A DNA stretch of 26,266 nt from an uncultured archaeon (lineage in GTDB: Archaea; Asgardarchaeota; Thorarchaeia; Thorarchaeales; Thorarchaeaceae), in the NCBI GenBank assembly GCA_964458565.1, contig CAYWJO010000047.1, positions 1 through 26,266 of the forward strand, written 5' to 3'. Shown here piece by piece: positions 1 to 17,485 of this stretch (within the stretch, counting starts at the first letter, position 1; each line of letters starts with the position of its first letter). The translations under genes and the position numbers were made by a program. Below the pieces are notes generated by a model, which was given only the letters and a program-made list of their open reading frames with translations, had not been told where the DNA came from and ran no database searches.

Positions 1-44
1 TAAACAACAGAGGTGAAATCTAACAGCAGAGGAACAGAGTAAAA

Positions 45-157
45 TGGCGCTGAGGGAGAGATTTGAACTCTCGCGTGCAGAGCACACTGGATGTTTGCTG
101 AACTGCTAAAGACGTTCAATAGCAATCCAGCTCCTTGCCAGGCTCGGATACCTCAGC
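45..157 (-). tRNA. tRNA-Ser(GCT) with 27-nt canonical 37/38 intron (93..119), CCA encoded
   Basis: Minus strand gives acceptor stem GCTGAGG/CCTCAGC + G + CCA, anticodon stem CTGGA/TCCAG with GCT, long variable arm GTGC-TCT-GCAC and T-arm GAGAG-TTCAAAT-CTCTC. The intron forms a clean bulge-helix-bulge (TTGC/GCAA central helix, TGAAC/GTTCA outer helix). Confidence 0.95.
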
Positions 158-208
158 GTGTTTGAGCGATGCAGACTCGGACAGGATTCTCTCATAAAGA
201 TTGTGACA
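140..208 (-). repeat. Repeat R0: tRNA-Ser 5' 18 nt + leader + promoter (the copy in the intact tRNA gene)
   Basis: aggctcggatacctcagcgtgtttgagcgatgcagactcggacaggattctctcataaagattgtgaca; reference copy for R1-R4. Confidence 0.9.
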
Positions 209-302
209 TGGTTTTACTCCTCAAAATTCAAATGCGATTAATGCATTAATGAATACTATCGAATTTCATTTAGTGTAATGAGGAGGAGTCTACACTGATT
301 GA

Positions 303-1691
303 TATTATGGGTACAGAAAGTCAACCAAATCCATTGTTTTTGGTCAAGCTGTTATCTTGGAAGAATCCGATTCTCATACAGAAATGTTTGTCTGTCAAGA
401 TCCAAGAAATATTGGTTGTTTCCTGATAGGATTATTCACCGAATCAACAATCTCTCATGAATCTGGATTTTCAAGGATGGATAATGATGTCACCAGACTT
501 GAGAGAGTTCTCAGATTTGAGCCTGAATATATTGATACAAAACCGCTCATTATCGAGAAGTCAGACAACGATATCTTGTGTTGGACTTGGAATATCGCAA
601 ACCTTGGTTGGGAGTTTCTTGGACACATCAAATTGATTTCAAGACATAAAGGACGGATTGCACTTCTTGATGCTTTGAAAGTCACATCAGATTCTTTTGA
701 AGGAATAAATCCCCCAGAAATTGCATACCCTCCTGATTTTGAAGAAAAAGCTTGGATGGTGATAAATAGATTTTACATATTGCGAAAACAGATAATTCCA
801 GTTGAGATTTCTCTGAAACAGAAAGGAAGCGGCTGCATAATCTCTTTTACAGATTCTGAAAATTATACAACTATTCATGAGGTAGAGATAGAAAGTGTAC
901 CAGATGCCATTACCACACTAAGGGCCGGATATTTGTTTCAAACAACAATTGATAATTTTATGACTTGGAATGTATATCATGACATAGAATATGGTGATTT
1001 TGAAGCTCTAAAACCACTTGTGGAAACTAGTACAGCATTAAGAACAAGGACTAAAATTCCTTCCTTATTGCAGAATATGCTGGAACCTGAAGACGACAGA
1101 ATCAAACTTGTTTTGACTCATGATGAATCAAATTGTCCAGTGGTAAAGAGGGGCATGAAGAAACACGATTCGTGTTGGATAATAATTAGTCATGAAGACA
1201 ATATGTTAGACCTTTCAGATATTCCATCACCACTTAATGGTGAGCAAGTATATGCTACATTGGCTTCTGGTAAAATCTACTCGGGTTCCCAGAAATATTC
1301 GTTTGATCTTGAATTGATACCTGAATATGGTAATTCTGCCTTTTCTGTATTTCAAGAGGATAGATGGATATTGAGATTGTTGAGAGAGCAAGGCATGAAT
1401 TTGATTGGAATGCCTGTTGGATCATTCATTGTTTCTAAAGAAGAAAAGTGGAAGGTTGTTGTTAATGTCGAAAAAACTCACCTGACATGGGTATTAATTT
1501 CTGAAACTACAGGTAGACAATATGGTGATGGATTAGTGCTAATTCAGTTCTCCACCTTGGATTCAATTGATGATATTGTTGAAGCTACAACTGAGCAGAT
1601 ATTGTCACACATGACTCAAGACGATTTAGTTGATTTTGAATTATTTCCAAATAAGCTGAGATCACTACTAACTAGCAAAGGTTTGAAGTAA
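303..1691 (+). CDS. Uncharacterised protein, probably a 5'-truncated C-terminal remnant (family copy A)
   Basis: 444-aa ORF from TTG 357; the frame is open from 303 with no clear start or RBS. It aligns by eye with 7649..8302 and 24325..26124 (WNVYHDIEY, LKPLV, LTHDESNCP, HDSCW). The stop codon abuts repeat R1. Confidence 0.7.
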   Translation, partial: YYGYRKSTKSIVFGQAVILEESDSHTEMFVCQDPRNIGCFLIGLFTESTISHESGFSRMDNDVTRLERVLRFEPEYIDTKPLIIEKSDNDILCWTWNIANLGWEFLGHIKLISRHKGRIALLDALKVTSDSFEGINPPEIAYPPDFEEKAWMVINRFYILRKQIIPVEISLKQKGSGCIISFTDSENYTTIHEVEIESVPDAITTLRAGYLFQTTIDNFMTWNVYHDIEYGDFEALKPLVETSTALRTRTKIPSLLQNMLEPEDDRIKLVLTHDESNCPVVKRGMKKHDSCWIIISHEDNMLDLSDIPSPLNGEQVYATLASGKIYSGSQKYSFDLELIPEYGNSAFSVFQEDRWILRLLREQGMNLIGMPVGSFIVSKEEKWKVVVNVEKTHLTWVLISETTGRQYGDGLVLIQFSTLDSIDDIVEATTEQILSHMTQDDLVDFELFPNKLRSLLTSKGLK

Positions 1692-1694
1692 AAA

Positions 1695-1763
1695 AGGCTG
1701 GGATACCTCAGCGTGTTTGAGCGATGCAGACTCGGATAGAATTCTCTCATAAAGATTGTGACA
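1695..1763 (-). repeat. Repeat R1: displaced tRNA-Ser 5' fragment + leader + promoter
   Basis: 1696..1763 matches 141..208 at 65/68 by manual alignment; identity to the tRNA stops in the D-loop at an A-run. Confidence 0.93.
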
Positions 1764-1825
1764 GGATACTGGTTCAGATATGAGATTCTGCTACACTCAA
1801 CCAAAACTAAGGCTCTTCAGAATAT

Positions 1826-3007
1826 TTAGTATTTCTCCTTTCTTCTAAACATAGTAAAATATAGGATTGATACGATTACCATACTATTGACAGGTATGAG
1901 AAGGGCCACTATGTTGGCATCTATTGGTATATCTCCAAAGTATACATACCTAGGATTTGTAAAATCTATCAAATTGCCATCGTATGCATCCCGTGGAAAT
2001 TCTAATGGCTCCTGTGTTAGATTAAAATTAGCATATTTCAATACCCACCCTAACTGAAATCTTAAAGAATATTCATCTGGTTCTTGACCTAAATATAGCA
2101 TTCTTAGATTCGCTCCCATATATTGATAATTCTCTTCGATAGACTTTTCATCACTTGAAATATAGCTGCGCACAAGATCCGGATTTATTACATTTGTTAC
2201 ATCTATCTCTGGTATCTCTATGCACCTGTATTCAAAATTAATGATGTAACCTGTTAGTGCATCTAAGTAAACAGTCACTCCCTGAAACATCTCATCAGGT
2301 GCTATTGAATTTCTTTCATATGCTATTTCGATTTTATACATGCTTGGATTGTTTTCATTTGGATAAGGGATTATCTCAATCACACGCATGTTTACATGTA
2401 AGGTATACCCTTTTTCCTTGAGAAAGTCTGCAAATACAGTTTTAATCTGATCTTCATCCGCCGGCAATTGATTTTCATTTATGTAATTTTGTCTTAATTC
2501 CACCGGCCATATATCCAATCCATTTTCGAAACGAGGTATATAGACAGCTACCTTCTTACTTATCGGATTGATTCCAACAAGAACACCATTAGGATTTGAT
2601 TGATTCTTGCCTATGAACCTGAGATATACCAAAGGTGGTCCAACTGACGTATTGAAATAATGTGGAGTGGGTTCCAGAAAAGAAAACAACGTGTCACCGA
2701 TGAAGTCACGAGCAATTGAATATAACTCGCTGTTGTTAAGTTTCATTAGGCGTACAAAAGAAACTGAGAAAAGAGAAGGATTTGTATTACTTCTATTGAA
2801 AACTCCCTTGTATATCACTGGATCTATTGCTTCACTTGTGATATTAGAGAATTCTGTTTCTTGAATCGGAGTACCACTGGAAATAATCTGATCTTCTCGG
2901 GCGCGTGTTAAATTAAATGCAACTGTTGGTATTGAGAATCCCGCAACACCAATCAATATAACTAAAATAACTGATTGAAGTAATCTCAATTTCTTTGATT
3001 CTATCAT
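1826..3007 (-). CDS. Membrane-anchored extracellular protein with N- and C-terminal hydrophobic helices and possible PepSY/YcdB-like repeats
   Basis: N-terminal signal/TM segment, C-terminal TM followed by RRKEKY, and recurring motifs VGINPISKKV, VYLDALTGYI, RDAYDGNLI resembling PepSY-type IDA.TG.I turns. Confidence 0.55.
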   Translation of the reverse strand: MIESKKLRLLQSVILVILIGVAGFSIPTVAFNLTRAREDQIISSGTPIQETEFSNITSEAIDPVIYKGVFNRSNTNPSLFSVSFVRLMKLNNSELYSIARDFIGDTLFSFLEPTPHYFNTSVGPPLVYLRFIGKNQSNPNGVLVGINPISKKVAVYIPRFENGLDIWPVELRQNYINENQLPADEDQIKTVFADFLKEKGYTLHVNMRVIEIIPYPNENNPSMYKIEIAYERNSIAPDEMFQGVTVYLDALTGYIINFEYRCIEIPEIDVTNVINPDLVRSYISSDEKSIEENYQYMGANLRMLYLGQEPDEYSLRFQLGWVLKYANFNLTQEPLEFPRDAYDGNLIDFTNPRYVYFGDIPIDANIVALLIPVNSMVIVSILYFTMFRRKEKY

Positions 3008-3112
3008 TACCTTTCATATTATACATTCCTAATAACTATATTATTCTACGTCTAGAGCTTCCCATTCAAATAACCACATATTCTTTACATAATGAAGCTC
3101 AAATAATAGAGC

Positions 3113-3568
3113 TTAATCATAAAGCGGCTGTGATTTCCACATCACCAAAGTTTCATAAAATGTAATACAACATGCAATTAACAAAGTGATGAGCAATACA
3201 ATATTGGATGGGTCCAAGCGTAATCCGAATATCAAGAGAAACCCGACAATCTCTGATAGAAAAAATACGAAATAGATTAAATAGCGTGGTAGAATTAACC
3301 CTCGTCGTCCTATGAAGAATCGAAGAATTCCGACACGTACTTCTTTTGAAACATAGTATCCTCCATGAGGATTCATTTTCACTAGATCTAAATCCTTCAA
3401 TTTATCAAGATGATGCAAAGCTAAACTTGCGCTTGATAGTCGTGCTTTTCGCTGAATATCTCTTAGACTTAGCTGATTTCTCTCTTTGAGAAGGACATAA
3501 TATACTTTTAATGTAGTCCCACTCAATTTCTTCTCAAGCGATTTTCTATCAATCCAATCATCATCCAT
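3113..3568 (-). CDS. Winged-HTH (ArsR-like) regulator with two C-terminal TM helices
   Basis: LSGTTLKVYYVLL..LSLRDIQRKARLSSASLALHHLDKLKDLDLV..GGYYV followed by two hydrophobic segments. Confidence 0.75.
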   Translation of the reverse strand: MDDDWIDRKSLEKKLSGTTLKVYYVLLKERNQLSLRDIQRKARLSSASLALHHLDKLKDLDLVKMNPHGGYYVSKEVRVGILRFFIGRRGLILPRYLIYFVFFLSEIVGFLLIFGLRLDPSNIVLLITLLIACCITFYETLVMWKSQPLYD

Positions 3569-3698
3569 TTTATACCACTCAATTTCCTGATATACACTAA
3601 TCTATGAAATCAGACATTGATTCGGAATTTCATTTTCAATTATCTTTTCCTCTCTATTTTAATCCTACATATGTCAAAGCGGTTTGAGATTTAGAATT

Positions 3699-5363
3699 TT
3701 ACACCCAAGGTGGATCTCTTAGAGCCCAATAATACTGACAGCACCAAGGACTCTCTTTGATATTTTGAGGATTCTCAGGATGATGACTATCCATACAGCA
3801 TTCAGGATTACTACAATAAACCTCATATCCTTGGCTATTCAATATCAAGATGCCTGTGTTATGGTTAAATTCATGAAGGAATGCCGTTCTTCTATAAGCA
3901 AGAATCGAAGGATTCCCAGTTATTTCTGATTGATATTTACATGCATCTTCGAAAATACAGAATCCTAATCTTTCTCCTACTCCATACATTCCCAAGACTG
4001 CATATCCAGAATCTAAATATTTCCTAGTACCTATCAGGCACCATTGCCATGGGTCATAATCATGAGTGAAATATTGATTGCGAAGATTGCTGAAATCTCC
4101 ATTACTTATAGCACCATCATAAGGGATAAAATCATTATCGATATCATAATCGAATCTAGTGAATCCTCGAAGAATGTGATATGTGCGAGTATAATCTATC
4201 ATATTCCTGATTTTTGATTTTGTAAGAATATATCCACTATTTCCAATCTTTTGCATTCTATCGACTTCAAGCTGTTGAACTCGATATGTAACATGATTAA
4301 AATTAATCCTCTTTCCATAATATGTATTAGACCCAACAAGTTCCAAACCAAGAACAAATGCTGTTCCGTCAGATGGTTCATAGCTAAGGCTTTCTTCATA
4401 TGACCCTGGACTTGTGACTGTAAATTTGTAGTTTCCATTAACATATACCTTTAAATTTCGTGAGTATGGATCATTATCATTTTCAGTCCAGAGATCTATT
4501 ATTGTTGATGTACCTCCTTTTACTTCATACTCTAATAGTGAATTATCTTCTTGTGGGAAATATTCCCAAAATGCTAGAATTGGATTACCTGAAGCTGGCC
4601 ACTGACTCTCAAAAGGTTGAATATATGTCAGCTTCCATGCATGATCTTTATGCGCTCCCCAGCTAATTTCAAGTTCGATTTCGTGTTCACCTGCCCCTAC
4701 TCCCCATACAGTGACAGCACTATGAAAACCAGAATTACTTCCTTGAGGAAAAATTTCACTGCTATATACCTCATTTCCATCAAAATAGACATAAAACATC
4801 CTTGAGTAGATAGTTTCCTGATCAGGTTCGATATCTATGAATATATCTAATGCCCAAACGTATGCTGGAAGGTCAATAAGAAAGGCAAGAACTGATTGGC
4901 CCTTAAAAGGAAACCAGTGTCCATTTTTCGCTGGTGATTGAAGTTCTTGGCGTCGCCATTCCGATGGAGTATATGGATTTCCCTCATCTGTTCCTGTAGG
5001 ACTAGAAAGTAGTTGAAAATCCAAATCCGTTTCTGTTGTTTTGTTATTGTCTTCACTAACAAAGGCAGAATACTCACTTCTATCAATTCCTTCTGGATTT
5101 GGGATGTTTAGGGAGTTTGATATTATTTCACTCTCAGAAGGCAATTCTTTTAGCCATTCTGCAGACATAAAATACGTTTCAGGTGAAAAAATGTCATTGT
5201 TCAATTCAGATTGTAATATATCTTGTGAATATATTGCACCATCATTTCCACCCATCATCATATATTTTGTATTCTCACTCTGAAAAGATGGTGTTGGAAA
5301 TATCAAAATTCCCACTAACACAATAAGAAGAATGCATTGTACATGCACTATTTTGACCTTCAT
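3699..5363 (-). CDS. Secreted protein with C-terminal zincin (HEXXH) metallopeptidase-like domain
   Basis: Signal peptide, two similar beta-rich segments (YSRMFYVYFDGN / YSRNLKVYVNGN), then FLHEFNHNTG..YCSNPECCM..CC, reminiscent of the archaemetzincin C-x4-C-x-M motif. Confidence 0.6.
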   Translation of the reverse strand: MKVKIVHVQCILLIVLVGILIFPTPSFQSENTKYMMMGGNDGAIYSQDILQSELNNDIFSPETYFMSAEWLKELPSESEIISNSLNIPNPEGIDRSEYSAFVSEDNNKTTETDLDFQLLSSPTGTDEGNPYTPSEWRRQELQSPAKNGHWFPFKGQSVLAFLIDLPAYVWALDIFIDIEPDQETIYSRMFYVYFDGNEVYSSEIFPQGSNSGFHSAVTVWGVGAGEHEIELEISWGAHKDHAWKLTYIQPFESQWPASGNPILAFWEYFPQEDNSLLEYEVKGGTSTIIDLWTENDNDPYSRNLKVYVNGNYKFTVTSPGSYEESLSYEPSDGTAFVLGLELVGSNTYYGKRINFNHVTYRVQQLEVDRMQKIGNSGYILTKSKIRNMIDYTRTYHILRGFTRFDYDIDNDFIPYDGAISNGDFSNLRNQYFTHDYDPWQWCLIGTRKYLDSGYAVLGMYGVGERLGFCIFEDACKYQSEITGNPSILAYRRTAFLHEFNHNTGILILNSQGYEVYCSNPECCMDSHHPENPQNIKESPWCCQYYWALRDPPWV

Positions 5364-5458
5364 TCAAACTTTCCCTCTCAAAACAATTAGAATATCTTCT
5401 ATTGGTTTGTGATTTTATCATTCAATTACTTAATAAATTTAATTGAAAAAAACTGATA

Positions 5459-5520
5459 GGATACCTCAGCATGTTTGAACGATGCAGATTCGGACTTCAT
5501 GTTCTCATAAAGATTGTGAC
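5459..5520 (-). repeat. Repeat R2: tRNA-Ser 5' 12 nt + leader + promoter
   Basis: 54/62 identity to 146..207 by manual alignment; terminal 18-mer tctcataaagattgtgac identical. Confidence 0.9.
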
Positions 5521-5606
5521 GTGGAGATATTGATTGGTCATTTCCTATAGACACGAAATACAACATTTGTGTTTGGTATCAATAATACCAAACAAAACCA
5601 CATCTA

Positions 5607-7421
5607 CTACATATCAAAATCTTCGAACTCTTCCAATGGATCTATCCCCTCGAGGTCCTCTCCTTCTTCTCGAAGTCTGAAAATCGCCATTTCATATGCC
5701 TTGAGTACGTCTGCCTTTGTGATGAAACCAATCATCTTATCTGGGTATCTCGGGTCGACCACAACAGCATGGCCTTCATCTCTTTCAAGCATAGCATGTA
5801 GGACGCTGTCCATCGAATCATCTGGTTTGAGATGCAGGAAATCTCGTTTCATGAGGTCCCCTACAACATATTCACAGTCTTCATCTTCACAGAATAAATC
5901 CTCAGTAATCAGAGTGCCAACTACCTTCCCATCAGCATCCACCACAGGAAACTTGGTGTGCTGTGTAATATCAACGATCTTCAAGACCTGATTCTTAGTC
6001 ATTTCAGGGTTTAATACTGTAGGTGTCGAAGTCATAACTTGAGATGCTTTCGCTTCTTTCAATGCACCAATATAGGCTCCCCGACGTATCTTAACCCCTC
6101 TTCGTGATAGTTTGAGGGTATATATGCTCTCTTCCTCAATTGATGCAGAGATCAGGTAGGAAGTAGAAACAGCAATCATTAGGGGAAGTATTAAGGAGTA
6201 GTCTTTGGTCATCTCCATTACCATTACAATACAAGTGATTGGTGCTCTACCAGAACCTGCAAATAATGCTGCCATTCCAACGATAGCAAAAGACATTGGC
6301 TGAGGTACAATTCCAGGAAAAAGAATCGAGAAGGTCAATCCAAACGCTCCACCTAGGGCAGTCCCTATATACAGTGTTGGAGCAAAGACACCACCAGATC
6401 CACCAGAACCAAGAGTGAATGCTGTGGCAAATGCCTTCAATATACCAAAAACGATGAGTGCAATTAGAGCTACATTGCCTAACAATACTGAATCTATGAA
6501 TGAATATCCAACTCCCATAATTGCTGGAACATAAGGCTCATACAGACCGAACTCACCAGCGTATGCAAAAGTACTCTCTAGCATTATGACAACAATCGCA
6601 AGACCACCAATCATTAATCCTCCAATCGCTGGGAGTAGATATCCGGATATCTTGATTCGTTCGAAGATATCCTCTATCTTGTAAAAACCTCTAGTCCAGA
6701 TCACACTTACAAGACCTAACAATAGGCCTAATCCCAGATACAACAGAAGCTCAAAGTAGTTGTTTAAAACAAAAGATGTTTCTAGAAATGATGTCTGCGG
6801 ACCCAGAAAGACATTAGCAACAGCTGTTGCTAGAACAGATGCGAGAATGACAGGGACTATTGAGAAACCTGCAAGACCCCCTGCAATTACTTCTACTCCA
6901 AACAGTGTCCCTCCAAGAGGAGCATTGAATGTAGCTGCAATACCAGATGAAACCCCACAGACAACCATCGTTTTGGTCAGTCGACTATTGAGATTCAATA
7001 ATTGCGCAATGCTTGATCCCACACCTCCACCTATCTGAGCGATTGGTCCTTCTCGACCACACGATCCTCCGGATCCTATACAGATTGCAGATGCAAGGCT
7101 TTTCAAAATTGGGACCCGCATTCGTATACGCCCCCTTTTCATTGCATATGCATCCATAATCTCAGGTACACCATGCCCTTTTGCCTCAGGGGCATACCTC
7201 ATCACTATAAAGGCAACCATCAACCCTCCTAAAACAGGAATGATGACCCACCCTATAGGTCCCCAATTCTGTGGAATAAAGACAAAGATCGTACTGATTC
7301 CAATAATCAACCATCTAAAACCTACAGCCACAAATCCTGATACAATACCTATAATTGCTCCAAGTGAATAGATTCTTACTTCTTGTTTCATTATCTGTCT
7401 TCTTAACATGAGATATGTCAC
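5607..7421 (-). CDS. CLC-family chloride channel/antiporter with C-terminal CBS pair
   Basis: CLC motifs GHGVPE, GREGP, FNAPLGG, GVFAP and IYT, many TM helices, and CBS domains (FPVVDADGKVVG, GFITKADVL). Confidence 0.93.
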   Translation of the reverse strand: MTYLMLRRQIMKQEVRIYSLGAIIGIVSGFVAVGFRWLIIGISTIFVFIPQNWGPIGWVIIPVLGGLMVAFIVMRYAPEAKGHGVPEIMDAYAMKRGRIRMRVPILKSLASAICIGSGGSCGREGPIAQIGGGVGSSIAQLLNLNSRLTKTMVVCGVSSGIAATFNAPLGGTLFGVEVIAGGLAGFSIVPVILASVLATAVANVFLGPQTSFLETSFVLNNYFELLLYLGLGLLLGLVSVIWTRGFYKIEDIFERIKISGYLLPAIGGLMIGGLAIVVIMLESTFAYAGEFGLYEPYVPAIMGVGYSFIDSVLLGNVALIALIVFGILKAFATAFTLGSGGSGGVFAPTLYIGTALGGAFGLTFSILFPGIVPQPMSFAIVGMAALFAGSGRAPITCIVMVMEMTKDYSLILPLMIAVSTSYLISASIEEESIYTLKLSRRGVKIRRGAYIGALKEAKASQVMTSTPTVLNPEMTKNQVLKIVDITQHTKFPVVDADGKVVGTLITEDLFCEDEDCEYVVGDLMKRDFLHLKPDDSMDSVLHAMLERDEGHAVVVDPRYPDKMIGFITKADVLKAYEMAIFRLREEGEDLEGIDPLEEFEDFDM

Positions 7422-7542
7422 ATCTATTCACTATGCACCTAGATTAGTGACCAATAAACATAGCATGCTACTAACGAAGGGTTATAGCAAAACAACACTT
7501 TTGAATGGTTCTTAAAGCTTCTTACAACGAATGAATGGAAAA

Positions 7543-7646
7543 AGGTGCAACGGCTCTCACAGTATCGGATGTCCATTCCTACTGAGCTAAATCGAAGCTT
7601 TTCTCAAAGCAGCTACCTCTGGGGCTCCACCACTCCGCCTTAGTGC
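7543..7646 (-). repeat. Duplicated 3' third of the SRP RNA gene (att-like fragment)
   Basis: 103/104 identical to 9926..10029, with a single mismatch at 7550/9933. Confidence 0.95.
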
Positions 7647-7648
7647 CT

Positions 7649-8302
7649 TAGTGACGACCTCGAAGGCATAAATCCTCCTGATATAGGATATCCGTCTGAC
7701 TTAGAACAGAGAGATTGGATATCCGTGAAACGATTTTACAGCTTACGGAAACATGAAATCCCTGTTAAAGTTTCATTAGAAGAAGTGAATGAACAGTGTA
7801 AAATTGCCTTTTCAGATTCTCAAGAAGAAACGACAATTCGTGAAATAAGTGTGAGGTGCACATCAGATGCCATATCTATTCTTAGAAGTGGTTACTCATT
7901 ACAATCTAGTATTGATAAAAGCATGACATGGAATTCATATCATGATGTTGATTATGGTGATTTTGACTCATTGAAACCATTTGTTGAAACAGATTCTGCA
8001 GTGAGAACAAAAACTAGGATTCCCGTTCTCTTATGTGATTTATTGGATTCTGAACAAGAACATCTGGAACTTGTACTGACACATGATGAAGCAAATTGTC
8101 CTGTAATGAAAGACGGTTTTTTGGACATGGGTCGTGCTGGAGAGTAATCCCCGATTCAGATATTGTGATGGATATGAAGGATATGTTTCCTCCAATGACA
8201 GGAGAAGAAGTATATGCACTTCTATCATCAGGAGTGATTTACTTGGAAAGTCGAAATTATGTATTTGAGCTGAATTTAATACCTGATTATGAGAGTCCAT
8301 AA
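7649..8302 (+). pseudogene. Internal fragment of the uncharacterised family (copy B), frameshifted
   Basis: Reads LEGINPPDIGYPSDLEQRDW..KRFYSLRK.. against FEGINPPEIAYPPDFEEKAW..NRFYILRK in copy A. Adding one T to the T6 run at 8117..8122 joins ORFs 7725..8147 and 8096..8302 (GFFGHGSCW vs GMKKHDSCW). Truncated at both ends. Confidence 0.85.
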
Positions 8303-8660
8303 TCATGTGGATGCAAACAACGGGTGGATAGTGGGCGATGAAGTCCCAATCATGTATACACCCGATGGTGGACTGAGCTGGTATGAACAGAGCACCTCTG
8401 AAGGTGTTTATTATCGACTATATGCAGTAGACTTTGTGGATCAGACTCATGGATGGGCTGTTGGATCAGGTGGATACATCCTTCGTACAACCAGAGGAAA
8501 TTCTACTGATATGCGGCTATGGACTGGCATGAATGATCCTATCTTCTTATCTATCATTGGTGGTCTAACAGGGGTTGCAGTGGTCGTAGTCATCACACTC
8601 TGGATCATACGAAGCAGAATTGGGTCTAAGCAAAGAAGTCAACAAGGTCTTGATTTGTAG
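8289..8660 (+). pseudogene. C-terminal fragment of a YCF48/BNR-repeat beta-propeller protein with TM anchor
   Basis: NGWIVGD..IMYTPDGGLSW, VDFVDQTHGWAVGSGGYILRT, C-terminal TM. Only about 2 blades and no signal peptide. Confidence 0.7.
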
Positions 8661-8691
8661 AATGTCTCTGTAACGTGATAAACCGCCTCCT

Positions 8692-8723
8692 AGGCTGCTT
8701 CAGTATGTTTGAACGATACAGAC
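8692..8723 (-). repeat. Repeat R3: degenerate partial copy
   Basis: cttcagtatgtttgaacgatacagac (8698..8723) matches R2 cctcagcatgtttgaacgatgcagat at 22/26 and is preceded by aggct; the promoter block is lost. Confidence 0.65.
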
Positions 8724-8836
8724 AACTCAGAACAGAAGTACAAATCAGAAGCAGATTTTTTGTGTGTAACTAAACACAACAACCGTTATACAATGCAATA
8801 ACTATGATTATTGTGTATCAATGGAGGAATGGGAAT

Positions 8837-9826
8837 TTGAATCATTCCAAAAGCTCAATAATTTTTTTCTTAGCAATTTTACTCTCTCTAAATCTAATCA
8901 ATACATCAATGATGGGTGTACCTGTGAGGGCGGATATTTTCTTCTATGATGACACCAATGTAATGGGAATCGTCACATCAAATCCAAACATCAGCATGCC
9001 CGAAGCGTATGTCTATGTAGATGCGGTAGTCACATCCAACTGGGACTACGACTTTGAAATCAATTGCTCTTACATGGTAAGAAGTAATAACACTTGTAAT
9101 GAAACGATAGCATTCGTTTATCCATGGTACACTTCAGATGACTATGTGAGTACGGAAATAGGTCCAATTCTTGGTGAATATAACATCTCTATTGATAGTG
9201 TTCCTGTATATCATGAAACCAAAACATGGAATGAGATACCTTCTGAGATACAGGATGCTTTCAGTTGGCACAACGATGCGTTCACTTTCGAGATTTTCAA
9301 CATAACTCTCGAAGGAAATAGAACCTCTGAGATTCAAATCTTTGGTGAATTTGAATACTCAACGATTTATAACCTATTTTATTTCTTTTACATGGTCGAA
9401 ACTGCAAGATGGTGGGCAGGAAATACAAGAGAAATCGTTGTAATGGACATAGATGTACAAACAACCATTGAGTCGATTCATTTTATACCTGATTCCTTCT
9501 TATCACAGTCCATTAATGGTAGTAGACACATTGGAGAATGGAATTTTACTATAGATGAATTTCCATCCGATACAGCAACAGCATTCTATGTAATTCAATA
9601 TATTCCTCCATTTCCGTATTCGACTACCAGTACACCAGAAACCTCCTTCAACACAACAACAACCTTGGTGACAACTTCTTCGACTCCAACCACATCTTCC
9701 TCAGTGGTAACTACTTCAACTTCACCTGCAATGGACAATGCAAATCTTGTATTCACTATAGGAATAATTAGCGGTAGTGCAATAGTTCTGATTGCAGCTG
9801 TTGTTTATCTTCTCAGAAAACGTTGA
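8837..9826 (+). CDS. Cell-surface protein: signal peptide, beta-rich (possibly DUF4424-like) domain, Ser/Thr linker, C-terminal TM + RKR
   Basis: Likely TTG start 8837 after GGAGG (track start 8804); motif YMVETARWWAG; stalk STTSTPETSFNTTTTLVTTSSTPTTSSS; several N-x-S/T sequons. Confidence 0.7.
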   Translation: MNHSKSSIIFFLAILLSLNLINTSMMGVPVRADIFFYDDTNVMGIVTSNPNISMPEAYVYVDAVVTSNWDYDFEINCSYMVRSNNTCNETIAFVYPWYTSDDYVSTEIGPILGEYNISIDSVPVYHETKTWNEIPSEIQDAFSWHNDAFTFEIFNITLEGNRTSEIQIFGEFEYSTIYNLFYFFYMVETARWWAGNTREIVVMDIDVQTTIESIHFIPDSFLSQSINGSRHIGEWNFTIDEFPSDTATAFYVIQYIPPFPYSTTSTPETSFNTTTTLVTTSSTPTTSSSVVTTSTSPAMDNANLVFTIGIISGSAIVLIAAVVYLLRKR

Positions 9827-9849
9827 AGCGAAATCTAAAACTATTAAGA

Positions 9850-9867
9850 AGGCTTGGATACCTCAGC
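9850..9867 (-). repeat. Repeat R4: tRNA-Ser 5' 18 nt with a different (probably original chromosomal) leader
   Basis: aggcttggatacctcagc matches 140..157 at 17/18. It has its own TATA-like element at 9893..9908 and lies directly downstream of the SRP RNA gene. Confidence 0.85.
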
Positions 9868-9892
9868 TTACTGATTTGCGGATTTCTTTTTT

Positions 9893-9908
9893 CTCTTAAA
9901 CATTGTCG
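9893..9908 (-). promoter_or_regulatory. BRE/TATA-like promoter CGACAATGTTTAAGAG of the displaced tRNA 5' end
   Basis: TTTAAG lies about 26-33 nt upstream of tRNA position 1; the same motif occurs upstream of SRP RNA, infB and rpl7ae. Confidence 0.55.
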
Positions 9909-9926
9909 TGGGGATTTGATAAAAGA

Positions 9927-10242
9927 GGTGCAGCGGCTCTCACAGTATCGGATGTCCATTCCTACTGAGCTAAATCGAAGCTTTTCTCAAAGCAGCTACC
10001 TCTGGGGCTCCACCACTCCGCCTTAGTGCTGTTCCCGCCAGGGCCTGACACGGTTCGACGGTTTAAGACAATCCCAGCAGACCTTCGACTGCTGCTATGT
10101 TCGTGACAGACTCCAGAGACTGCCTATCATAGTCCGGCAACGAAACCCAGCAGGGCCGGTTTCATTCTCCACGGAGTTAACTGACGCCATTATTGCCTTT
10201 ATGGATAACAGCCGCGGCAAACGGCCCGTCCTTCCCGCTGCA
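9927..10242 (-). ncRNA. ffs: Signal recognition particle (7S) RNA
   Basis: About 316 nt. Terminal helix TGCAGCGG/CCGCTGCA, helix-8 signature GAACCGTGTCAGGCCC-TGGC-GGGAACAGCACTAAG, helix 6 CAGCAG-TCGAAGGT-CTGCTG, downstream T-run and upstream TATA. Confidence 0.9.
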
Positions 10243-10264
10243 ATTCGACTTTTTATCGTGTCTG

Positions 10265-10280
10265 CCTAAAAAGATTGTCA
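10265..10280 (-). promoter_or_regulatory. BRE/TATA-like promoter of SRP RNA (TGACAATCTTTTTAGG)
   Basis: Lies about 23-30 nt upstream of the predicted 5' end. Confidence 0.6.
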
Positions 10281-10313
10281 ATCAACAACATAAATACAGA
10301 ACATGGCAAAAAC

Positions 10314-12107
10314 CTATACGAATGCCCCAGCTTCTCGTTTTATCTGAGTCAGTTCTTCAAGAACTTCAATTTCGGATTGTGTGAGATCCTCTCTGAATTT
10401 GGTCCTAGCAGCGATAATGTGAGAGTCTGGCATATCCACGTAGAGCACATCATCTTCCTTCACTTGTCGCCCAATAGTAGGTCCTCTGACTGATATTGCG
10501 ACTTCCATCCCTGCAGTTGCTTCATTGATAGTTACACTTCTATCCTGAATCTGAAGAATGGTTCCTATTCTCTTTCCTTGCAATGTCATCAATGGAACTC
10601 TGGGTCTAATAATCCCGTGCACTTTAACACCAAACACAGCTGGATTATTACGTCTGAATATATATTCGGGAATGATTTCCACTTTTCCGGGTCTTATTAT
10701 TGATCCCAATGATGATGCTTTTGCCTGTTCTCTCTTGACAATCAACCACGCATTATAATCATCATACAGCCTGTAAATGACCTCATTCATGAAGAGTTCT
10801 ACTCCCTCTTCAGCAGCAAGGTCCTCAATCTCTGGTGCAACTTTCACATTGAAGCCCAATACAACCGCATTGAGAATGTCTGTATCTCCTGCTGCTTTAG
10901 CCTCAAGGATATCTCGACGTACGACTGGGCCAACATCAGCTACGCGAACAGGAACCTTTCGTTCCTGGAGAAATTGGGTTACTGCTTCTAAAGAGCCCAA
11001 TGTATCAGTCTTAAGAACAATTCCTGACGAGTCTCTCTGAATTCGAATCGCTCCTACTTCGGCTCTGACCTTTTCCTCGATTTCCGCTAATTTTTCAAGA
11101 TTTGATACAGCATAGACTGGAGCTCCTGCAACTACTCCCTCAATGTCTGGTGCAACAATCTTGACCCCTGCAGCTGCATGTACCTCAGACACGTGGGTGA
11201 ACTTCTCCTTTGGGTCTCTAATCTCGTCAAGTTCTTTTGGTAGAAGGAGCGCTCTGATTTTAGCTACAATTACTTTGTCAAGACCTCCAACAACAATTGT
11301 GTCACTCTTTTTCAGTATACCTTCGTAAATAATGGTATCAAGGGTCAGTCCCAGACCTGTTTCTTCTCTCACTTCAAGTATTGCACCACGTGCAGGACCA
11401 GAAGACACCTTGAGCCGATCTTTCATATACTGTTGTGTTAAACCTGAAAGAACTGTCAATAATTCCGGAATACCCTCTCCTGTTTTTGCGCTCGTTGGTA
11501 CTATCGCAATGTTTTTGGTGAAATTTGTGACCCTATCAAATCGTTCTGCCATGATGTTATTAGCAGATAAAGCACCAACTATCTCGTACAATCTTCTATC
11601 TAGTTCTGTTTGAGTTGACATACCTTGTGCTTTAATTGATTGGAGTAGATTCATACCAGGTTTCAACCTCCATCCAGGAACCTTATCCAGCTTGTTTGCA
11701 GCAATAATGAAAGGAGTCTTTCCAGATCGGAGTATCTTGAGTGACTCATAGGTCTGTGTCAAAGCTCCTTCATTAATATCTACTACAAGTATCGCAATAT
11801 CTGCGATTGCACCCCCCCGTCTTCTAAGATTCAAATATGCTTCATGCCCAGGTGTATCTATAAACAATAGGCCTTCAATACTTAGTTTAGCACCCATGGT
11901 TTCTAAGAGTGGACCACAGATTTTCTTGATAGTTTCAGTCGGAAAATAGGAGGCACCAATATGCTGAGTTATACCTGCAGCCTCTCGTGACTGCACAGCG
12001 GTACCTCGCATTTTGTCCAAGAGAGAAGTCTTTCCGTGATCAATGTGACCGAGAACCGTTACAATTGGTGAGCGTAATTTTCCGGTTTCTGCTTCTGGCT
12101 TAGACAT
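10314..12107 (-). CDS. infB: Translation initiation factor aIF5B (IF-2)
   Basis: LRSPIVTVLGHIDHGKTSLLD, GITQHIGA, DTPGHE, NKLD, TSAKTGEG. Start taken at ATG 12107 after GAGGTG (track start 12146). Confidence 0.97.
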   Translation of the reverse strand: MSKPEAETGKLRSPIVTVLGHIDHGKTSLLDKMRGTAVQSREAAGITQHIGASYFPTETIKKICGPLLETMGAKLSIEGLLFIDTPGHEAYLNLRRRGGAIADIAILVVDINEGALTQTYESLKILRSGKTPFIIAANKLDKVPGWRLKPGMNLLQSIKAQGMSTQTELDRRLYEIVGALSANNIMAERFDRVTNFTKNIAIVPTSAKTGEGIPELLTVLSGLTQQYMKDRLKVSSGPARGAILEVREETGLGLTLDTIIYEGILKKSDTIVVGGLDKVIVAKIRALLLPKELDEIRDPKEKFTHVSEVHAAAGVKIVAPDIEGVVAGAPVYAVSNLEKLAEIEEKVRAEVGAIRIQRDSSGIVLKTDTLGSLEAVTQFLQERKVPVRVADVGPVVRRDILEAKAAGDTDILNAVVLGFNVKVAPEIEDLAAEEGVELFMNEVIYRLYDDYNAWLIVKREQAKASSLGSIIRPGKVEIIPEYIFRRNNPAVFGVKVHGIIRPRVPLMTLQGKRIGTILQIQDRSVTINEATAGMEVAISVRGPTIGRQVKEDDVLYVDMPDSHIIAARTKFREDLTQSEIEVLEELTQIKREAGAFV

Positions 12108-12243
12108 TAGAGGCACCTCGCAAAACGACTGGCCGCGTGACGACAATTAGAACATAAGAAACTGTCGTTACATCCCTCTTCACAAGGCTAATATTAATGT
12201 CATCAATTTCTCACTATGTTATTGGCATAATCATCTATGAAAG

Positions 12244-12915
12244 GTGAGATTAGTGGAACAATCATTAGTGATAATAAAACCAGACGGGACTGTAAGAAGA
12301 CGCATTGGTGCACTTGTTATTGAAGCACTACTTGACCGAGGCTACAAGGTTCGTGCATTCAAGGAGATGAAGGTACCAAGGGAGGTAGCCAAGCTCCATT
12401 ATGCAGTACACAAGGAGAAACCATTCTTTCCATGGCTTGTGGATTTCATATCATCAGGTCGAGTTCTTGTTTTGATTCTTGAGGGCGATAATGTCATTCA
12501 AGGAGTGAGAGACGCATTAGGCGCAACCTTCGTTCAGAAGGCTGACTCTACATCATTGAGAGGCAAATTTGGAATCTGGGCAGGAATTAATATTGCACAT
12601 GCATCAGACGCTCCTGAAACTGCTGCTATTGAGATAACACTCTGGACTAATGAAGGTGGAGTTTCTGAATCAGAATCTGCTGATGCAAAGGCTCATGAAT
12701 ATATCAAGAAGTATAAGATTGGTGATGCAGATTATACCATGCAGATTCGTGAGGTTGTGAAATCTGCTATTGATTCTAAGGACACATCCCCTGAAGTACT
12801 CATCTCACTTGAAGAGCTGTTCGGAAAGGATGCGGACGGTATCGAAAAGGATGGAATCAAGGCACTTGCTGTCGCCATTTTTGATTTCATCAAAGAAGAA
12901 GTAGAAAAAGTATAG
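12244..12915 (+). CDS. ndk: Nucleoside diphosphate kinase with C-terminal extension
   Basis: IIKPDG, HYAVHKEKPFFPWLVDFISSG, SLRGKFG, NIAHASD catalytic His; about 80 extra C-terminal residues. Confidence 0.93.
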   Translation: MRLVEQSLVIIKPDGTVRRRIGALVIEALLDRGYKVRAFKEMKVPREVAKLHYAVHKEKPFFPWLVDFISSGRVLVLILEGDNVIQGVRDALGATFVQKADSTSLRGKFGIWAGINIAHASDAPETAAIEITLWTNEGGVSESESADAKAHEYIKKYKIGDADYTMQIREVVKSAIDSKDTSPEVLISLEELFGKDADGIEKDGIKALAVAIFDFIKEEVEKV

Positions 12916-12927
12916 GGAGTGATTCAT

Positions 12928-12946
12928 GGTGGCACAACGTGCCACC
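12928..12946. terminator. Hairpin between the convergent ndk and rpl24e genes
   Basis: GGTGGCAC-AAC-GTGCCACC, a perfect 8-bp stem. Confidence 0.45.
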
Positions 12947-12986
12947 CTTCACTCTGTTATATTTACATTGATAAAATGACGAGTCT

Positions 12987-13184
12987 TTATCGGGGTTTAC
13001 CACCCTTCTGAAAGCCTTGAGTCCATTTGGTCTGTCTAGGCTTCATTCTACGCTTGACTTGTGCAGTCTTGCACTTGTTGGAACAGAACCACATAACTGA
13101 CCCGTCTTTTGTTCGTACAAAAGCTGAGCCCGTACCGGGTTCGATATCCTTCCCGCAGAAATCGCATTTCTGTGTTCCAACCAT
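12987..13184 (-). CDS. rpl24e: 50S ribosomal protein L24e
   Basis: CDFCGKDIEPGTG..FCSNKC..PRQTKWT. Confidence 0.97.
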   Translation of the reverse strand: MVGTQKCDFCGKDIEPGTGSAFVRTKDGSVMWFCSNKCKTAQVKRRMKPRQTKWTQGFQKGGKPR

Positions 13185-13188
13185 TACT

Positions 13189-13416
13189 CTAGCGCCTCCT
13201 CATCTTTCTTGCTTCTCTTTCAGTTTCACGAAGAATGAGAATGTCCCCCATTCTTACGGGTCCCTTTACATTACGCGTAAGGACACGACCTTTATCCCTA
13301 CCATCGAGTATCTTAACTCGTACTTGGGTAATCTCTCCAGTGACACCAGTTCTGCCCAGAAGTTGAATTACTTCTGCAGGGATTGATGGTGTCTTTGAGT
13401 CATCCTCTTTACTCAT
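13189..13416 (-). CDS. rps28e: 30S ribosomal protein S28e
   Basis: [40 protein letters not shown]. Confidence 0.97.
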
Positions 13417-13442
13417 GGATATTCATCACCTAGAGGGATTTT

Positions 13443-13814
13443 CTATGCACGTAGAGCGCCAATCTTCTCGACAATATCTGATACGAGATCCTTCGCTTTA
13501 CCTTCGACAATTATCGCAACTGCAGCTGTTGGTCGTTCGATACCAACTGATGCACCCAAATCCTTCTTATGAGGTACGAAGATGTAAGGGGCTTTCTTAT
13601 CGTCACATAGACCGGGTAGGTACATAATAATCTCTTGAGGCTCAACGTCTTCAGCTACTACAACAAGCTTCGCTATTCCACGCTCGATTGATTTAGTAGC
13701 CTCATTGATACCCTTCTTGATTCGACCGGTGTCCTTCGCAATTTCGAGAGCATCTAAGGCCTTCTTCTGAAGTTCCTCAGTAGCATCCCAATCGACAAAT
13801 GATGGTTTTGGCAT
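13443..13814 (-). CDS. rpl7ae: 50S ribosomal protein L7Ae
   Basis: GRIKKGINEATKSIERGIAKLVVVAEDVEP. Confidence 0.97.
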   Translation of the reverse strand: MPKPSFVDWDATEELQKKALDALEIAKDTGRIKKGINEATKSIERGIAKLVVVAEDVEPQEIIMYLPGLCDDKKAPYIFVPHKKDLGASVGIERPTAAVAIIVEGKAKDLVSDIVEKIGALRA

Positions 13815-13938
13815 TTCTGTTTACCTCTGTTCTCACTTCATTGGTATGAATACAGATTGAGCTACCCACATTATCTGGATAGTTATTGGGCGGCACTTCT
13901 TTGGTTCTTTTAAAACTGTCGAAGCATCTATAGATGAA

Positions 13939-14991
13939 TCAATATCCAAGGTCTTGGAGTCCTCGAACTATATCACTATCATCAAGTTTCAGATGCCTGA
14001 GCACAGAGTACCTATTCCTTCGTTCCATTATCTTTAATGCATGATGGACATCATCTATGAACAATTCTTGGCTCACATTCAATTCATCAAAGGTCATGGG
14101 GAATCCCCGTTTTCTCATGAAATCTTGTATGAACTCAGATTTGTACTTGGAATAGCCTACCTCCTCCAGATACTTCACACATAGAGGTGTAGCAAAAGCA
14201 ACCTGAATGCCATGAAGATTTTCTAATCTTCGGTCCATTGCATGTGAAATTGCATGTTCTGTTCCAGAACATGGTCTTGAGCTACCAAATTGACACATAG
14301 CCTCCCCAGCATCGATTTCTGCTCTGACAAGAGTTACGAGGCTATAATCAGTCAAGATAGTATCTAATGTTTTGGCTAATGTTGAATAGATGTCCTCATT
14401 AAATGCCTCTTCATTGTGCTCATGTGCTAAACGCCATTCTGCAAGACTTGATGCTTTACTAATAATATCACCGAGTCCTGCCATTTCCAATTTCGATGGA
14501 GCCTTTGACATTATGGAGAGATCTGCAAGGACAGCTATAGGTTTCTTACACAACTCTGAATATCTGTAGCCATCATGTGTTACTGATGCAACATCACTCG
14601 CAATACCATCATGGGATGCAGCAGTTGGAATCGATACCCACTCAAGTCCTGATTCCCTGGCGAGAAGTTTTGCCGCATCGATGCTACGACCTCCACCAAA
14701 ACCAATTATGATATCTGCGTCCTTAAATTCAGATACATTGATTTCAGCACCTCTGCTTGCTCCAAATATAACACGTCCATCATATGGGTCTGTTGATATC
14801 ACCTGATTAAACTGAGGTAACCTCAACCAATTATGCTCACGACCTATCACAGAAGCGATGACCTCATGATATTGAGCATAAATCAAGTCATCTGTTACAA
14901 TCAGTACATGCTTAAACTTCTTGAGAAGATCAGTAAGTTTTTGGATTGCCCCTTCTGCAATAATAACATTGTTTGATGAATTAGGGGACAT
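13939..14991 (-). CDS. egsA: sn-glycerol-1-phosphate dehydrogenase family protein
   Basis: GGGRSIDAAK, PTAASHDGIAS, AGLGD, SSRPCSGTEHAISHAMD, HGIQVA. Confidence 0.85.
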   Translation of the reverse strand: MSPNSSNNVIIAEGAIQKLTDLLKKFKHVLIVTDDLIYAQYHEVIASVIGREHNWLRLPQFNQVISTDPYDGRVIFGASRGAEINVSEFKDADIIIGFGGGRSIDAAKLLARESGLEWVSIPTAASHDGIASDVASVTHDGYRYSELCKKPIAVLADLSIMSKAPSKLEMAGLGDIISKASSLAEWRLAHEHNEEAFNEDIYSTLAKTLDTILTDYSLVTLVRAEIDAGEAMCQFGSSRPCSGTEHAISHAMDRRLENLHGIQVAFATPLCVKYLEEVGYSKYKSEFIQDFMRKRGFPMTFDELNVSQELFIDDVHHALKIMERRNRYSVLRHLKLDDSDIVRGLQDLGY

Positions 14992-15159
14992 TATGATATA
15001 CTCCTTTAGGGTACGAATTCACCGGTTAGTATACACATCTAAACTCTTCGAATTCCACTTACTTACGTTTAGTGGTCTGTATATACCTTGGGACTTAGCG
15101 TTATTCTGGTAATACTCTAGCTATTATGCTCTTGAAACAAGACCTGACATGACCACCTA

Positions 15160-15681
15160 ATGAGGAAAGCCAATATGACTCAATATGTCAAAGTCGCATT
15201 ACTTGGTTCTGGTTATGCGGGTAAATCCACTCTGATTCGTCTGCTCACTGATAATGTATCAAAGATAAAGACGCATCATCAACCCTACAAACCAACAGTT
15301 GGAATGGACTGTGGAACCATTACATTGGACACGACAACTAAAATTTCACTTGTGGAAATGGGTGGTCAGACACATTTTGAGTTCTTGTGGCCTGATTTGA
15401 TTCGAGGCAGCAGAATGGTAGTTGTAATCACAGAGAGTTCACCAAAAGCGGTTCTAAAAACTCGTCAGCTCCTTGAGAAATATAAGACCTATCTTGATGA
15501 TAAACAGGTGATTGCGATAGCCAACAAACAAGATATTCCTGGCTCGATGAAACCAGAGTCTGTACAAGATCTGTTAGGTATTCCTACTTATGGAATGGTA
15601 GCAATTGATCCAAAGCAAAGAGTGAATGGATACAGACTTATTGTGAATGGTCTTCGCGAATTAATTCAAGTAGCAGCTTGA
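15160..15681 (+). CDS. Small Ras-superfamily GTPase (Arf/MglA-like)
   Basis: G1 GSGYAGKST, G2 PTVG, G3-like EMGGQ, G4 NKQD. Confidence 0.88.
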   Translation: MRKANMTQYVKVALLGSGYAGKSTLIRLLTDNVSKIKTHHQPYKPTVGMDCGTITLDTTTKISLVEMGGQTHFEFLWPDLIRGSRMVVVITESSPKAVLKTRQLLEKYKTYLDDKQVIAIANKQDIPGSMKPESVQDLLGIPTYGMVAIDPKQRVNGYRLIVNGLRELIQVAA

Positions 15682-15737
15682 GTAATTTAGACGCTGTTTC
15701 GTAACTCTTTTATGCAATCCACGATGTGACTCTGATG

Positions 15738-17484: not shown

Positions 17485-17485
17485 A

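Follow-up and report, generated by a model that had tools for sequence, protein, structure and literature searches.

The interval between the SRP RNA gene and the tRNA-Ser(GCU) gene of a member of the Thorarchaeota (Asgard) is occupied by about 9.7 kb of accessory genes, and on balance this array is probably an additive (accreting) genomic island built on the promoter side of the tRNA gene, with an unusual 5' polarity and with recombination in a core of about 12 nt. All coordinates refer to the window, i.e. the whole stretch of 26,266 nucleotides that was analysed.

The tRNA-Ser(GCU) gene is intact and lies on the minus strand at 45..157. It was parsed manually into exon 1 (157 to 121), a 27-nt intron at position 37/38 (about 120 to 94) and exon 2 (93 to 45, including CCA). 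ARAGORN missed the gene in default mode and in intron mode found a tRNA at 45-157 under a wrong name, and when the 27 nt at 37/38 were removed the program called an 86-nt tRNA-Ser(gct). The gene is homologous to tRNA-Ser(gct) of relatives, whose genes are without the intron, and it is apparently a single-copy, essential gene in the host. An intact gene does not fit a split or trans-spliced tRNA gene, in which separate 5' and 3' pieces with complementary flanks take its place. The SRP RNA gene, also on the minus strand (9930..10241, read 10241 to 9930), was matched in Rfam at E 1e-18 with 87.9 bits, which is below the gathering score of 96.5 bits. The order aIF5B followed by SRP RNA is kept in 23 of the 24 family genomes searched.

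A 69-nt module made up of promoter, leader and tRNA nt 1-18 recurs through the interval, with the copies co-oriented on the minus strand. The active copy, R0 (140..208), has a TATA-like CTTTATGAGAG at 189-199, a leader and tRNA nt 1-18, with the core at 146-157. The displaced module R1 (1695..1763) matches R0 at 96% along its 69 nt (E 6e-26 in a whole-genome search), stops at tRNA nt 18 and is followed by a T-run. R2 (5453-5521, annotated as feature 5459..5521; core 5459-5470) has a variant leader, is 81-86% identical (E 3e-16) and joins the neighbouring gene block at tRNA nt 12. R3 (8691..8722) is a decayed stub of leader and tRNA nt 1-14 that is nearest to R2 (27/32). R4 (9846..9910) lies 62 nt after the SRP RNA gene and has its own TTTAAGAGA-type promoter, a distinct leader and tRNA nt 1-18 at 9850-9867 (17/18). 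The first-pass annotation had claimed five co-oriented copies of the tRNA 5' end, and all were recovered in place and on the minus strand. It had also been correct that R4 differs in its leader and adjoins the SRP RNA gene, and that R1 and R4 leave the tRNA sequence at the same place, with identity lost after nt 18 in both. Overlooked at that stage were a spare 108-nt copy of the SRP RNA 3' end and trailer (7539..7646, minus strand, 98% identical to 9922-10029) and, directly following it, a decayed R4-like promoter, leader and junction remnant (7468..7538, minus strand) with TTTAAGAACC at 7507-7516 and TAACCCTTCGTTAGTAG at 7468-7484.

The 12-mer GCTGAGGTATCC at the tRNA start occurs four times exactly in the window, always on the minus strand, compared with 0.06 occurrences expected when one mismatch is allowed. 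A search of the genome, as had been proposed earlier, placed the 12-nt core in the array only, with no exact copy in the rest of the 3.7 Mb, and none of the viral contigs searched carries the module. R0, R1 and R2 do not fold better than shuffled sequences (z +1.9 to -0.5). Twenty local alignments of post-stub sequence to tRNA trailers addressed the idea that the stubs are internally deleted tRNA genes that keep a 3' trailer; 19 of them stayed at shuffle level (z at most 2.0, and z 0.3 for R1 with the trailer of the window itself), and the idea was rejected. The exception, the decayed stub aligned to the trailer of one lineage-B contig (z 3.1, 3/200 shuffles), was treated as chance.

Between the repeats lie discrete units of 1.1-3.7 kb. 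Unit 1 (209..1694, plus strand, GC 0.356) contains geneA at 357-1691, which had been described as a copy of a gene family; the family membership holds, and what is present is a 5'-truncated fragment corresponding to residues ~1010-1450 of a ~1550-aa family. Unit 2 (1764..5458, minus strand, GC 0.348), here called the trio, encodes a membrane protein (1826-3007) for which no homologues elsewhere were found when sought, a wHTH-TM protein (3113-3568) and a secreted HExxH protein (3699-5363), and its conserved left end, TATCAGTTTTTTTCAATTAAAT, is at 5437-5458. Next come a CLC chloride channel with CBS domains (5607..7421, minus strand), a frameshifted geneA' pseudogene (7647..8302, plus strand, 53% aa identity to geneA residues 110-326) whose truncation coincides exactly with the boundary of the SRP-tail copy, and a fragment (8289..8660, plus strand) that covers the C-terminal end of a BNR-repeat surface protein and includes a TM anchor. 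A second CLC gene, located 2 kb past the tRNA on contig C45, is a paralogue of the array CLC (62% aa, 66% nt). The unit nearest to the SRP RNA gene encodes a putative surface protein, surf (8804..9826, plus strand, GC 0.365), with a signal/TM segment, a Thr/Ser-rich stalk and a C-terminal TM segment. Gene strands are thus mixed in the array (geneA and surf on plus, trio and CLC on minus), and the GC content of three blocks is 0.35-0.37 compared with 0.42 in the core. Both geneA copies are truncated, the SRP-tail copy sits in the middle of the array and a CLC paralogue lies nearby; such untidy boundaries look like illegitimate or homology-driven events.

In relatives the aIF5B-SRP-tRNA-Ser locus is compact, with a gap between the SRP RNA and tRNA genes of about 100-150 nt in four genomes and of 2.1 kb at the widest, and none of the block genes was found in the relatives' SRP-tRNA-Ser loci. 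Among the loci of 14 relatives only one further stub was detected. The promoter and leader of R4 are of the type seen in the compact relatives, which supports the earlier proposal that R4 is the ancestral tRNA start. Two sister lineages contain arrays of other compositions, in the order SRP-R4-surf'-R-trio-R1/tRNA in lineage B and SRP-R4-[HTH, membrane gene]-R1/tRNA in lineage C, and the junctions of each are present in two independent assemblies. In both lineages the counterpart of R1 is the live tRNA 5' end and geneA is missing. Lineage B has a surf homologue, 74% identical, at the equivalent place, the position of R3 is homologous to the repeat directly before its trio, and its repeats on the two sides of the trio are identical (63/63). 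Even though the SRP sequences of B and C are 97.5% identical, the two differ by the surf' block. When related loci were compared for variable blocks, as the first-pass annotation had suggested, the repeats marked the exact points at which content changed between genomes (types A, B and C); neither the geneA block nor the CLC block is present in the sister lineage with the trio, and repeats delimit the differences at both ends. When JGI metagenome contigs were scanned for the leader pattern, one more lineage-B contig came up, and no new architecture emerged from look-ups of the geneA, MFS, surf' and aIF5B proteins.

The trio has been transferred recently. It is 99.5-99.7% identical in three contigs whose aIF5B/SRP flank is only 74-78% identical. 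Downstream of the tRNA, over the ~130-240 nt available, identity is 90-95%, and this mosaic relative to the 74-78% upstream suggests that ordinary homologous exchange is also at work at the locus. One and the same trio end (a T-run, then CAATTAAAT) joins R2-type, R0-type and R4-type leaders at tRNA nt 11-12. Three different leaders on the same end indicate that recombination occurs within the first 12 nt and not, as had been proposed, at nt 18 in the D-loop; nt 18 is simply where the tRNA-like stretch of some units stops. A strictly age-ordered array is also contradicted, given that the CLC block, which carries the SRP-tail copy, lies between the related stubs R3 and R2 and therefore entered a displaced stub. 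The proposed age gradient is apparent in part and fails at R4, in which 17/18 tRNA bases survive while R3 has decayed further.

Taken as an additive island, the locus would have started from a tRNA gene located ~60-150 nt after the SRP RNA gene. Blocks would enter by recombination in the short core formed by the first ~12 nt of the tRNA, and the tRNA-proximal end of each block would be a module of promoter, leader and tRNA nt 1-12/18. Once inserted, the block's own module would drive the intact tRNA body, and the older promoter and tRNA start would stay upstream as a dead stub, often with a T-run that would terminate transcription. Displaced stubs could also serve for entry and exit, so that the array would be shuffled as well as extended. 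Insertion on the 5' side of tRNA-Ser by units that bring a promoter, leader and tRNA-start module had been suggested from the first reading and is supported here. We infer circular intermediates and a Campbell-type insertion, as well as the nature of the enzyme; no circular junction, and no empty-site junction inside one lineage, was seen in the contigs.

No integrase or other recombinase domain was detected in the array ORFs, which bears out the earlier statement that no integrase is encoded in cis. Given that no block encodes a recombinase, the recombining enzyme would act in trans. The sole PF00589 match in the genome, on contig C53, is weakly XerA-like with 38.9 bits against a cut-off of 220, and a search of the genome for a serine recombinase found none. 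RNA-guided insertion would call for a guide beside a TnpB or Cas1 gene that matches the target. The genome has about seven TnpB-like genes and one CRISPR-type Cas1, and the sequences within ~1.5 kb on each side of these genes have no exact match of at least 12 nt to the module or the tRNA. A 15-20-nt match on contig C62 lies within a large ORF and was judged to be chance. As a candidate hidden recombinase, geneA was rejected: it has no Pfam or PDB sequence match, its structural model (pLDDT 85.6) gave Foldseek TM-scores of ~0.1 and a best VIA Z of 6.5, within noise. A search of a protein atlas with the 1533-aa relative returned no usable match. DNA methylases adjoin geneA relatives, which makes a defence role more likely than a recombinase role.

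We regard it as conceivable, and no firmer than a tentative idea, that Thorarchaeota have a dedicated recombination system by which cassettes without an integrase land at the ends of stable-RNA genes, at this locus at the SRP RNA tail and at nt 1-12 of tRNA-Ser plus the promoter. If true, archaea would possess a functional counterpart of integrons, and the promoter of each cassette would keep an essential RNA gene alive.

The same locus could possibly, if doubtfully, be a homology-driven exchange hotspot without any dedicated system, in which linear DNA from related strains recombines via the SRP RNA tail, the R modules and the tRNA, and in which one-sided homologous plus illegitimate joins, or host recombination on short repeats, left the stubs and the spare SRP tail behind as scars. 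The identity mosaic around the tRNA, the leader swaps on one junction, the 108-nt SRP-tail copy and truncated gene fragments at block edges and the failure to find an integrase all fit such exchange, and the block by which B and C differ could be removed by recombination across an 11-12-nt repeat. Cassettes with repeats of tRNA parts are likewise described for additive islands in the literature, where integrases go unmentioned (PMC7771536). Against this, 12 nt is a short stretch of homology for homologous recombination to be efficient, and random illegitimate joins would not produce the recurrence of breakpoints at nt 18 (R1, R4 and the R4 of lineage B) and, in all three contexts of the trio, at nt 11-12.

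That the blocks were classical integrative elements or proviruses, each arriving with its own integrase that was later lost, appears unlikely. Such elements characteristically leave tandem arrays with displaced tRNA fragments, 159 of 3919 Islander islands have a 5' fragment (PMC4383910) and erosion is visible in the geneA fragments. However, the trio moved recently into three backgrounds and an integrase is found in none of them, the units are small, the module is on no viral contig and the crossover is outside the anticodon loop, T loop and 3' junction. Still more improbable is local segmental duplication and divergence alone, without DNA import. The paralogue pairs geneA/geneA' and CLC/CLC2 and the duplicated SRP tail would be explained, but the block genes were not found in relatives' loci, the trio is near-identical across diverged backgrounds, block GC is low and most blocks are mutually unrelated; the contigs of lineages B and C largely refute it. 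An assembly or binning artefact, with strain variants joined at repeats, is extremely improbable: the sequence comes from a MAG, the contig ends 44 nt past the tRNA gene and Logan unitigs break within R1 and the SRP-tail copy, but the repeats are diverged rather than collapsed and each is spanned with unique flanks at 100% identity by at least one of six independent contigs. The chimera that had been named as a possible refutation is contradicted by these contigs, and independent metagenome contigs from several samples and several assemblers tile the array at 100%, so the array is not an assembly artefact.

Among known systems the closest parallels are the additive flexible genomic islands at tRNA genes (fGI1 of Ca. 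Actinomarinales, PMC7771536), in which small cassettes are added or swapped at a fixed site by a tRNA, are exchanged among strains, species and genera, and for which no integrase is described. Here too the locus is the same with gene content differing in relatives, and cassettes have been transferred across diverged genomes. The array differs from fGI1 in its repeat, which is the tRNA 5' start with promoter and leader, in belonging to an Asgard archaeon and in containing a spare SRP RNA tail. With promoter and leader included in the repeat, each cassette must supply transcription signals. Islander tRNA/tmRNA islands (PMC4383910) are similar in having an intact tRNA gene, co-oriented displaced fragments that mark the ends, and tandem arrays, and the 5' fragments upstream of the present tRNA are on the correct side. 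Those islands carry a tyrosine integrase, displace a 3' fragment in 96% of cases (3760 vs 159 with 5'), cross over in the anticodon loop, T loop or T/acceptor junction, and rarely form arrays of at least three (4 cases) (PMC4383910). In contrast, the present island contains no integrase, its fragments come from the 5' end, its core (nt 1-12) lies away from those three crossover sites, and there are 4-5 stubs.

The first-pass annotation had called the array integron-like. Integrons do share small gene units in order, a recurring co-oriented site between units and strain-variable content, but here there is no IntI beside the array, the repeat consists of part of a host RNA gene together with its promoter and forms no hairpin attC, and genes in mixed orientation replace mostly promoterless, co-oriented cassettes under a common promoter. 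Cis-mobilisable elements accreted beside ICEs have att-like flanking repeats, lack recombination genes of their own and depend on a helper; the present blocks likewise lack a recombinase, and no helper element or integrase was identified for them. The array is not an integron and is best read as an additive, tRNA-anchored island of 5' polarity.

A literature search on tRNA 5'-end integration in archaea found nothing specific. Elements that insert into tRNA genes nearly always replace the 3' part, leaving the host promoter working. In this genome the promoter and first bases of an apparently single-copy tRNA gene have been replaced repeatedly, which means that incoming DNA takes over the transcription of an essential gene. 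Moreover, blocks pass between diverged lineages of Asgard archaea, the closest archaeal relatives of eukaryotes, without a recognisable integrase. It is a long-standing idea that integration is hindered by tRNA introns, and the nt 18 limit of some stubs coincides with the D-loop intron site of relatives, which makes interference of tRNA introns with integration testable at this locus.

The accessory genes of the array lie between two RNA genes that were both missed in the window by default ARAGORN and by Rfam at the gathering score. The first is a class II tRNA-Ser with anticodon GCU at 157→45 on the minus strand, with a 27-nt intron at 37/38 according to manual sequence parsing. ARAGORN in intron mode places the gene at exactly 45-157 and, after removal of the 27-nt intron from the sequence, reports an 86-nt tRNA-Ser(gct). 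The genome (G000, a 3.7 Mb Thorarchaeota MAG in 93 contigs, one of which, C47, is the entire window) yielded no second GCU isoacceptor. The SRP RNA gene (10241→9930), directly 3' of aIF5B, matched the Rfam model with E 1e-18 and 87.9 bits, which is below the gathering score of 96.5 bits, and standard annotation would therefore miss this copy. Within the family, tRNA-Ser(GCU) introns occupy three positions (anticodon 37/38, D-loop at about nt 18-20, and T-loop; seven loci), and two tRNA-Ser(GCU) allele types inside one genus suggest allele replacement.

The repeat unit R consists of 51 nt of upstream sequence, comprising a TATA-like CTTTATGAGAG and a leader, followed by tRNA nt 1-18. Five minus-strand copies are present: the active R0 at 140-208 (the reference copy) and the displaced R1 at 1695-1763 (96% similarity to R0), R2 at 5453-5521 (81-86% similarity), R3 at 8691-8722 (27/32 to R2) and R4 at 9850-9867 (17/18 of the tRNA start), the last with a different, TTTAAGAGA-type promoter and leader ahead. 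The window holds four exact matches to the tRNA start GCTGAGGTATCC, always on the minus strand (expected 0.06), and the rest of the genome none. The five co-oriented copies had been recognized in the first-pass annotation, which overlooked one further feature in the middle of the array: a 98% copy (7539-7646, 108 nt) of the SRP RNA 3' end (last ~100 nt) with its trailer (cf. 9922-10029), followed by a decayed version of the promoter, leader and junction of R4 (7468-7538). Just past the SRP-tail copy the sequence is only ~60% like the region past the real SRP RNA, and this sharp change in identity points to gene conversion or to an independent insertion at the SRP tail.

The array is not an assembly artefact. 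Positions 1-18199 are tiled at 100% identity by independent contigs (several JGI samples; Logan and ENA assemblies) and every repeat is spanned with unique flanks (contigs L104, L108, L096, L100, L098 and L097). L104 joins the window to the end of contig C45 of the same genome; window and C45 share an identical 55-nt overlap (window 1-55 = C45:27078-27132) bridged by a JGI contig, with the assembly break just past the tRNA. The next genes beyond tRNA-Ser encode an MFS transporter, a second CLC and a creatininase, followed by EF-1alpha, whose gene (C45:20094-21614) matches in three frame-shifted pieces.

The family shares the order of aIF5B-NDK and the ribosomal protein genes, with the SRP RNA after aIF5B. 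The distance from SRP RNA to tRNA-Ser(GCU) is about 100-150 nt in four relatives (G009, G019, G006 and G023) and 0.4-2.1 kb in others, with a few inverted or rearranged, and none of the window's array genes were found at the SRP/tRNA-Ser loci of other genera. The R4-type promoter is used by the compact relatives, and the R0-type promoter (GTCACAATSTTTATGAGAGAAT) was found at tRNA genes lying apart from the SRP RNA or rearranged relative to it. From these comparisons R4 marks the ancestral tRNA-Ser start, as had been proposed earlier, and 9.7 kb was added in the window's genome. In another genus (L054, contig C11 of G005, 8231-14164) the resident tRNA-Ser(GCU) is broken into its promoter plus nt 1-25 (8231-8300) and a 3' part (~14085-14164); the 5.8 kb between them carry genes for LRR proteins and, in inverted orientation, an intact replacement tRNA-Ser (12155-12268), and an integrase is absent from 8231-14164.

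Look-ups of the array proteins gave two sister architectures, each backed by two independent assemblies. In type B (L105, L107) aIF5B, SRP RNA, R4 and surf', which is 74% identical to the window's putative surface-protein gene, are followed by a repeat, the trio (genes for a secreted HExxH protein, a wHTH-TM protein and a membrane protein) and R1 fused to an intact tRNA-Ser. In type C (L106, L112) aIF5B, SRP RNA and R4 are directly joined to the HTH and membrane genes, followed by R1 and the tRNA. An SRP identity of 97.5% places B and C in one species-level lineage; what separates them is the surf' block together with the protease gene. Their closest sampled genome is that of the window (78% over NDK-aIF5B-SRP vs ~69% for other genera). 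Since the trio is 99.5-99.7% identical between the sister lineages and the window, it has moved recently between diverged genomes. Two additions distinguish the window from B: a geneA unit between R1 and R0 and, between R3 and R2, a 3.2-kb block (BNR fragment, geneA', SRP-tail copy, decayed stub and CLC gene). All these differences begin and finish at repeats. In the type C scaffold L112 (2064-2441) R1 breaks off at the TATA box, beyond which unrelated, coding-like sequence without a match in G000 takes over; this reflects either a further rearrangement or a chimeric scaffold.

Three different leaders meet the distal end of the trio (a T-run, then CAATTAAAT), in each case at tRNA nt 11-12: R2-type in the window, R0-type in B and R4-type in C. 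The two trio-flanking repeats of B are identical over 63 nt, as far as tRNA nt 12, and the block by which B differs from C is bounded only by the shared ~12 nt. From the three leaders and the bounds of this block, the common crossover region is deduced to be the first 12 nt of the tRNA instead of the D-loop joint at nt 18 suggested previously. The nt-18 boundary in R1, R4 and the R4 of B is the end of the tRNA-like stretch of those units; it coincides, perhaps only in position, with the place of the D-loop intron in the tRNA-Ser genes of B, C, G007, G067, G002 and G006.

GeneA (357-1691) is a truncated fragment, since it spans only residues ~1010-1450 of a ~1550-aa family that is multi-copy and has no Pfam domains, and geneA' is truncated exactly at the edge of the SRP-tail copy. 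The family has a conserved H/C/H/C motif, and comparison of the predicted structure gave no convincing fold match. Its relatives lie beside DNA methylases. One of these relatives, a distant 599-aa family member (24325-26124), is in the window together with a C5 cytosine methylase (22561-23664) and a RecB-family nuclease DUF2122 (23657-24127); the three lie within 22561-26264 at the end of the contig, just upstream of tRNA-Pro(CGG), and may form a restriction/defence module at another tRNA. The trio membrane protein had no homologue among 5.8 billion proteins. The array CLC and the CLC beyond the tRNA share 62% protein identity, and the GC of three blocks is 0.35-0.37 vs 0.42 for the core.

The locus is best read as an additive island anchored at the tRNA, with 5' polarity. 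Each incoming unit, equipped with a module of promoter, leader and tRNA start, would recombine with a resident module inside the 12-nt core and take over tRNA transcription, and the old tRNA start would remain behind as a stub. The recombination may be the work of a dedicated site-specific enzyme, which would fit breakpoints that repeat at the same nucleotides, or of host recombination on short homology, which would fit the mosaic flank identity (90-95% downstream vs 74-78% upstream) as well as the spare SRP tail and truncated genes within the array. The genome encodes one tyrosine recombinase (366 aa, weakly XerA-like), no serine recombinase, ~7 TnpB-like genes and one CRISPR Cas1, and no match to the repeat module was found in the neighbourhoods of the TnpB-like genes or Cas1. 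The integron-like label initially given to the array was abandoned, as R lacks attC-like folding and no recombinase is present in the array.

Among 3919 islands in Islander, 159 have a 5' fragment, all with an integrase and with crossovers in the anticodon or T region (PMC4383910), whereas the present array is without integrase and has its core at tRNA nt 1-12. Additive islands with tRNA-part repeats have been described in marine bacteria (PMC7771536), and the Asgard elements described to date integrate at tRNA genes with integrases (PMC8813620); the distinctive parts of the present array are the tRNA 5' head including the promoter and the SRP RNA tail. At the neighbouring tRNA-Ser(UGA) (C45:956-1092, minus strand; locus L135, C45:1-5000) two displaced promoter/leader copies lie at 4082-4116 and 4862-4900. 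Each precedes a co-oriented gene, the first for a 941-aa SBBP propeller protein and the other a 181-aa ORF, and a copy of the tRNA 3' end is located at C45:23-73. The locus is thus another small array, similar in style to that at tRNA-Ser(GCU).
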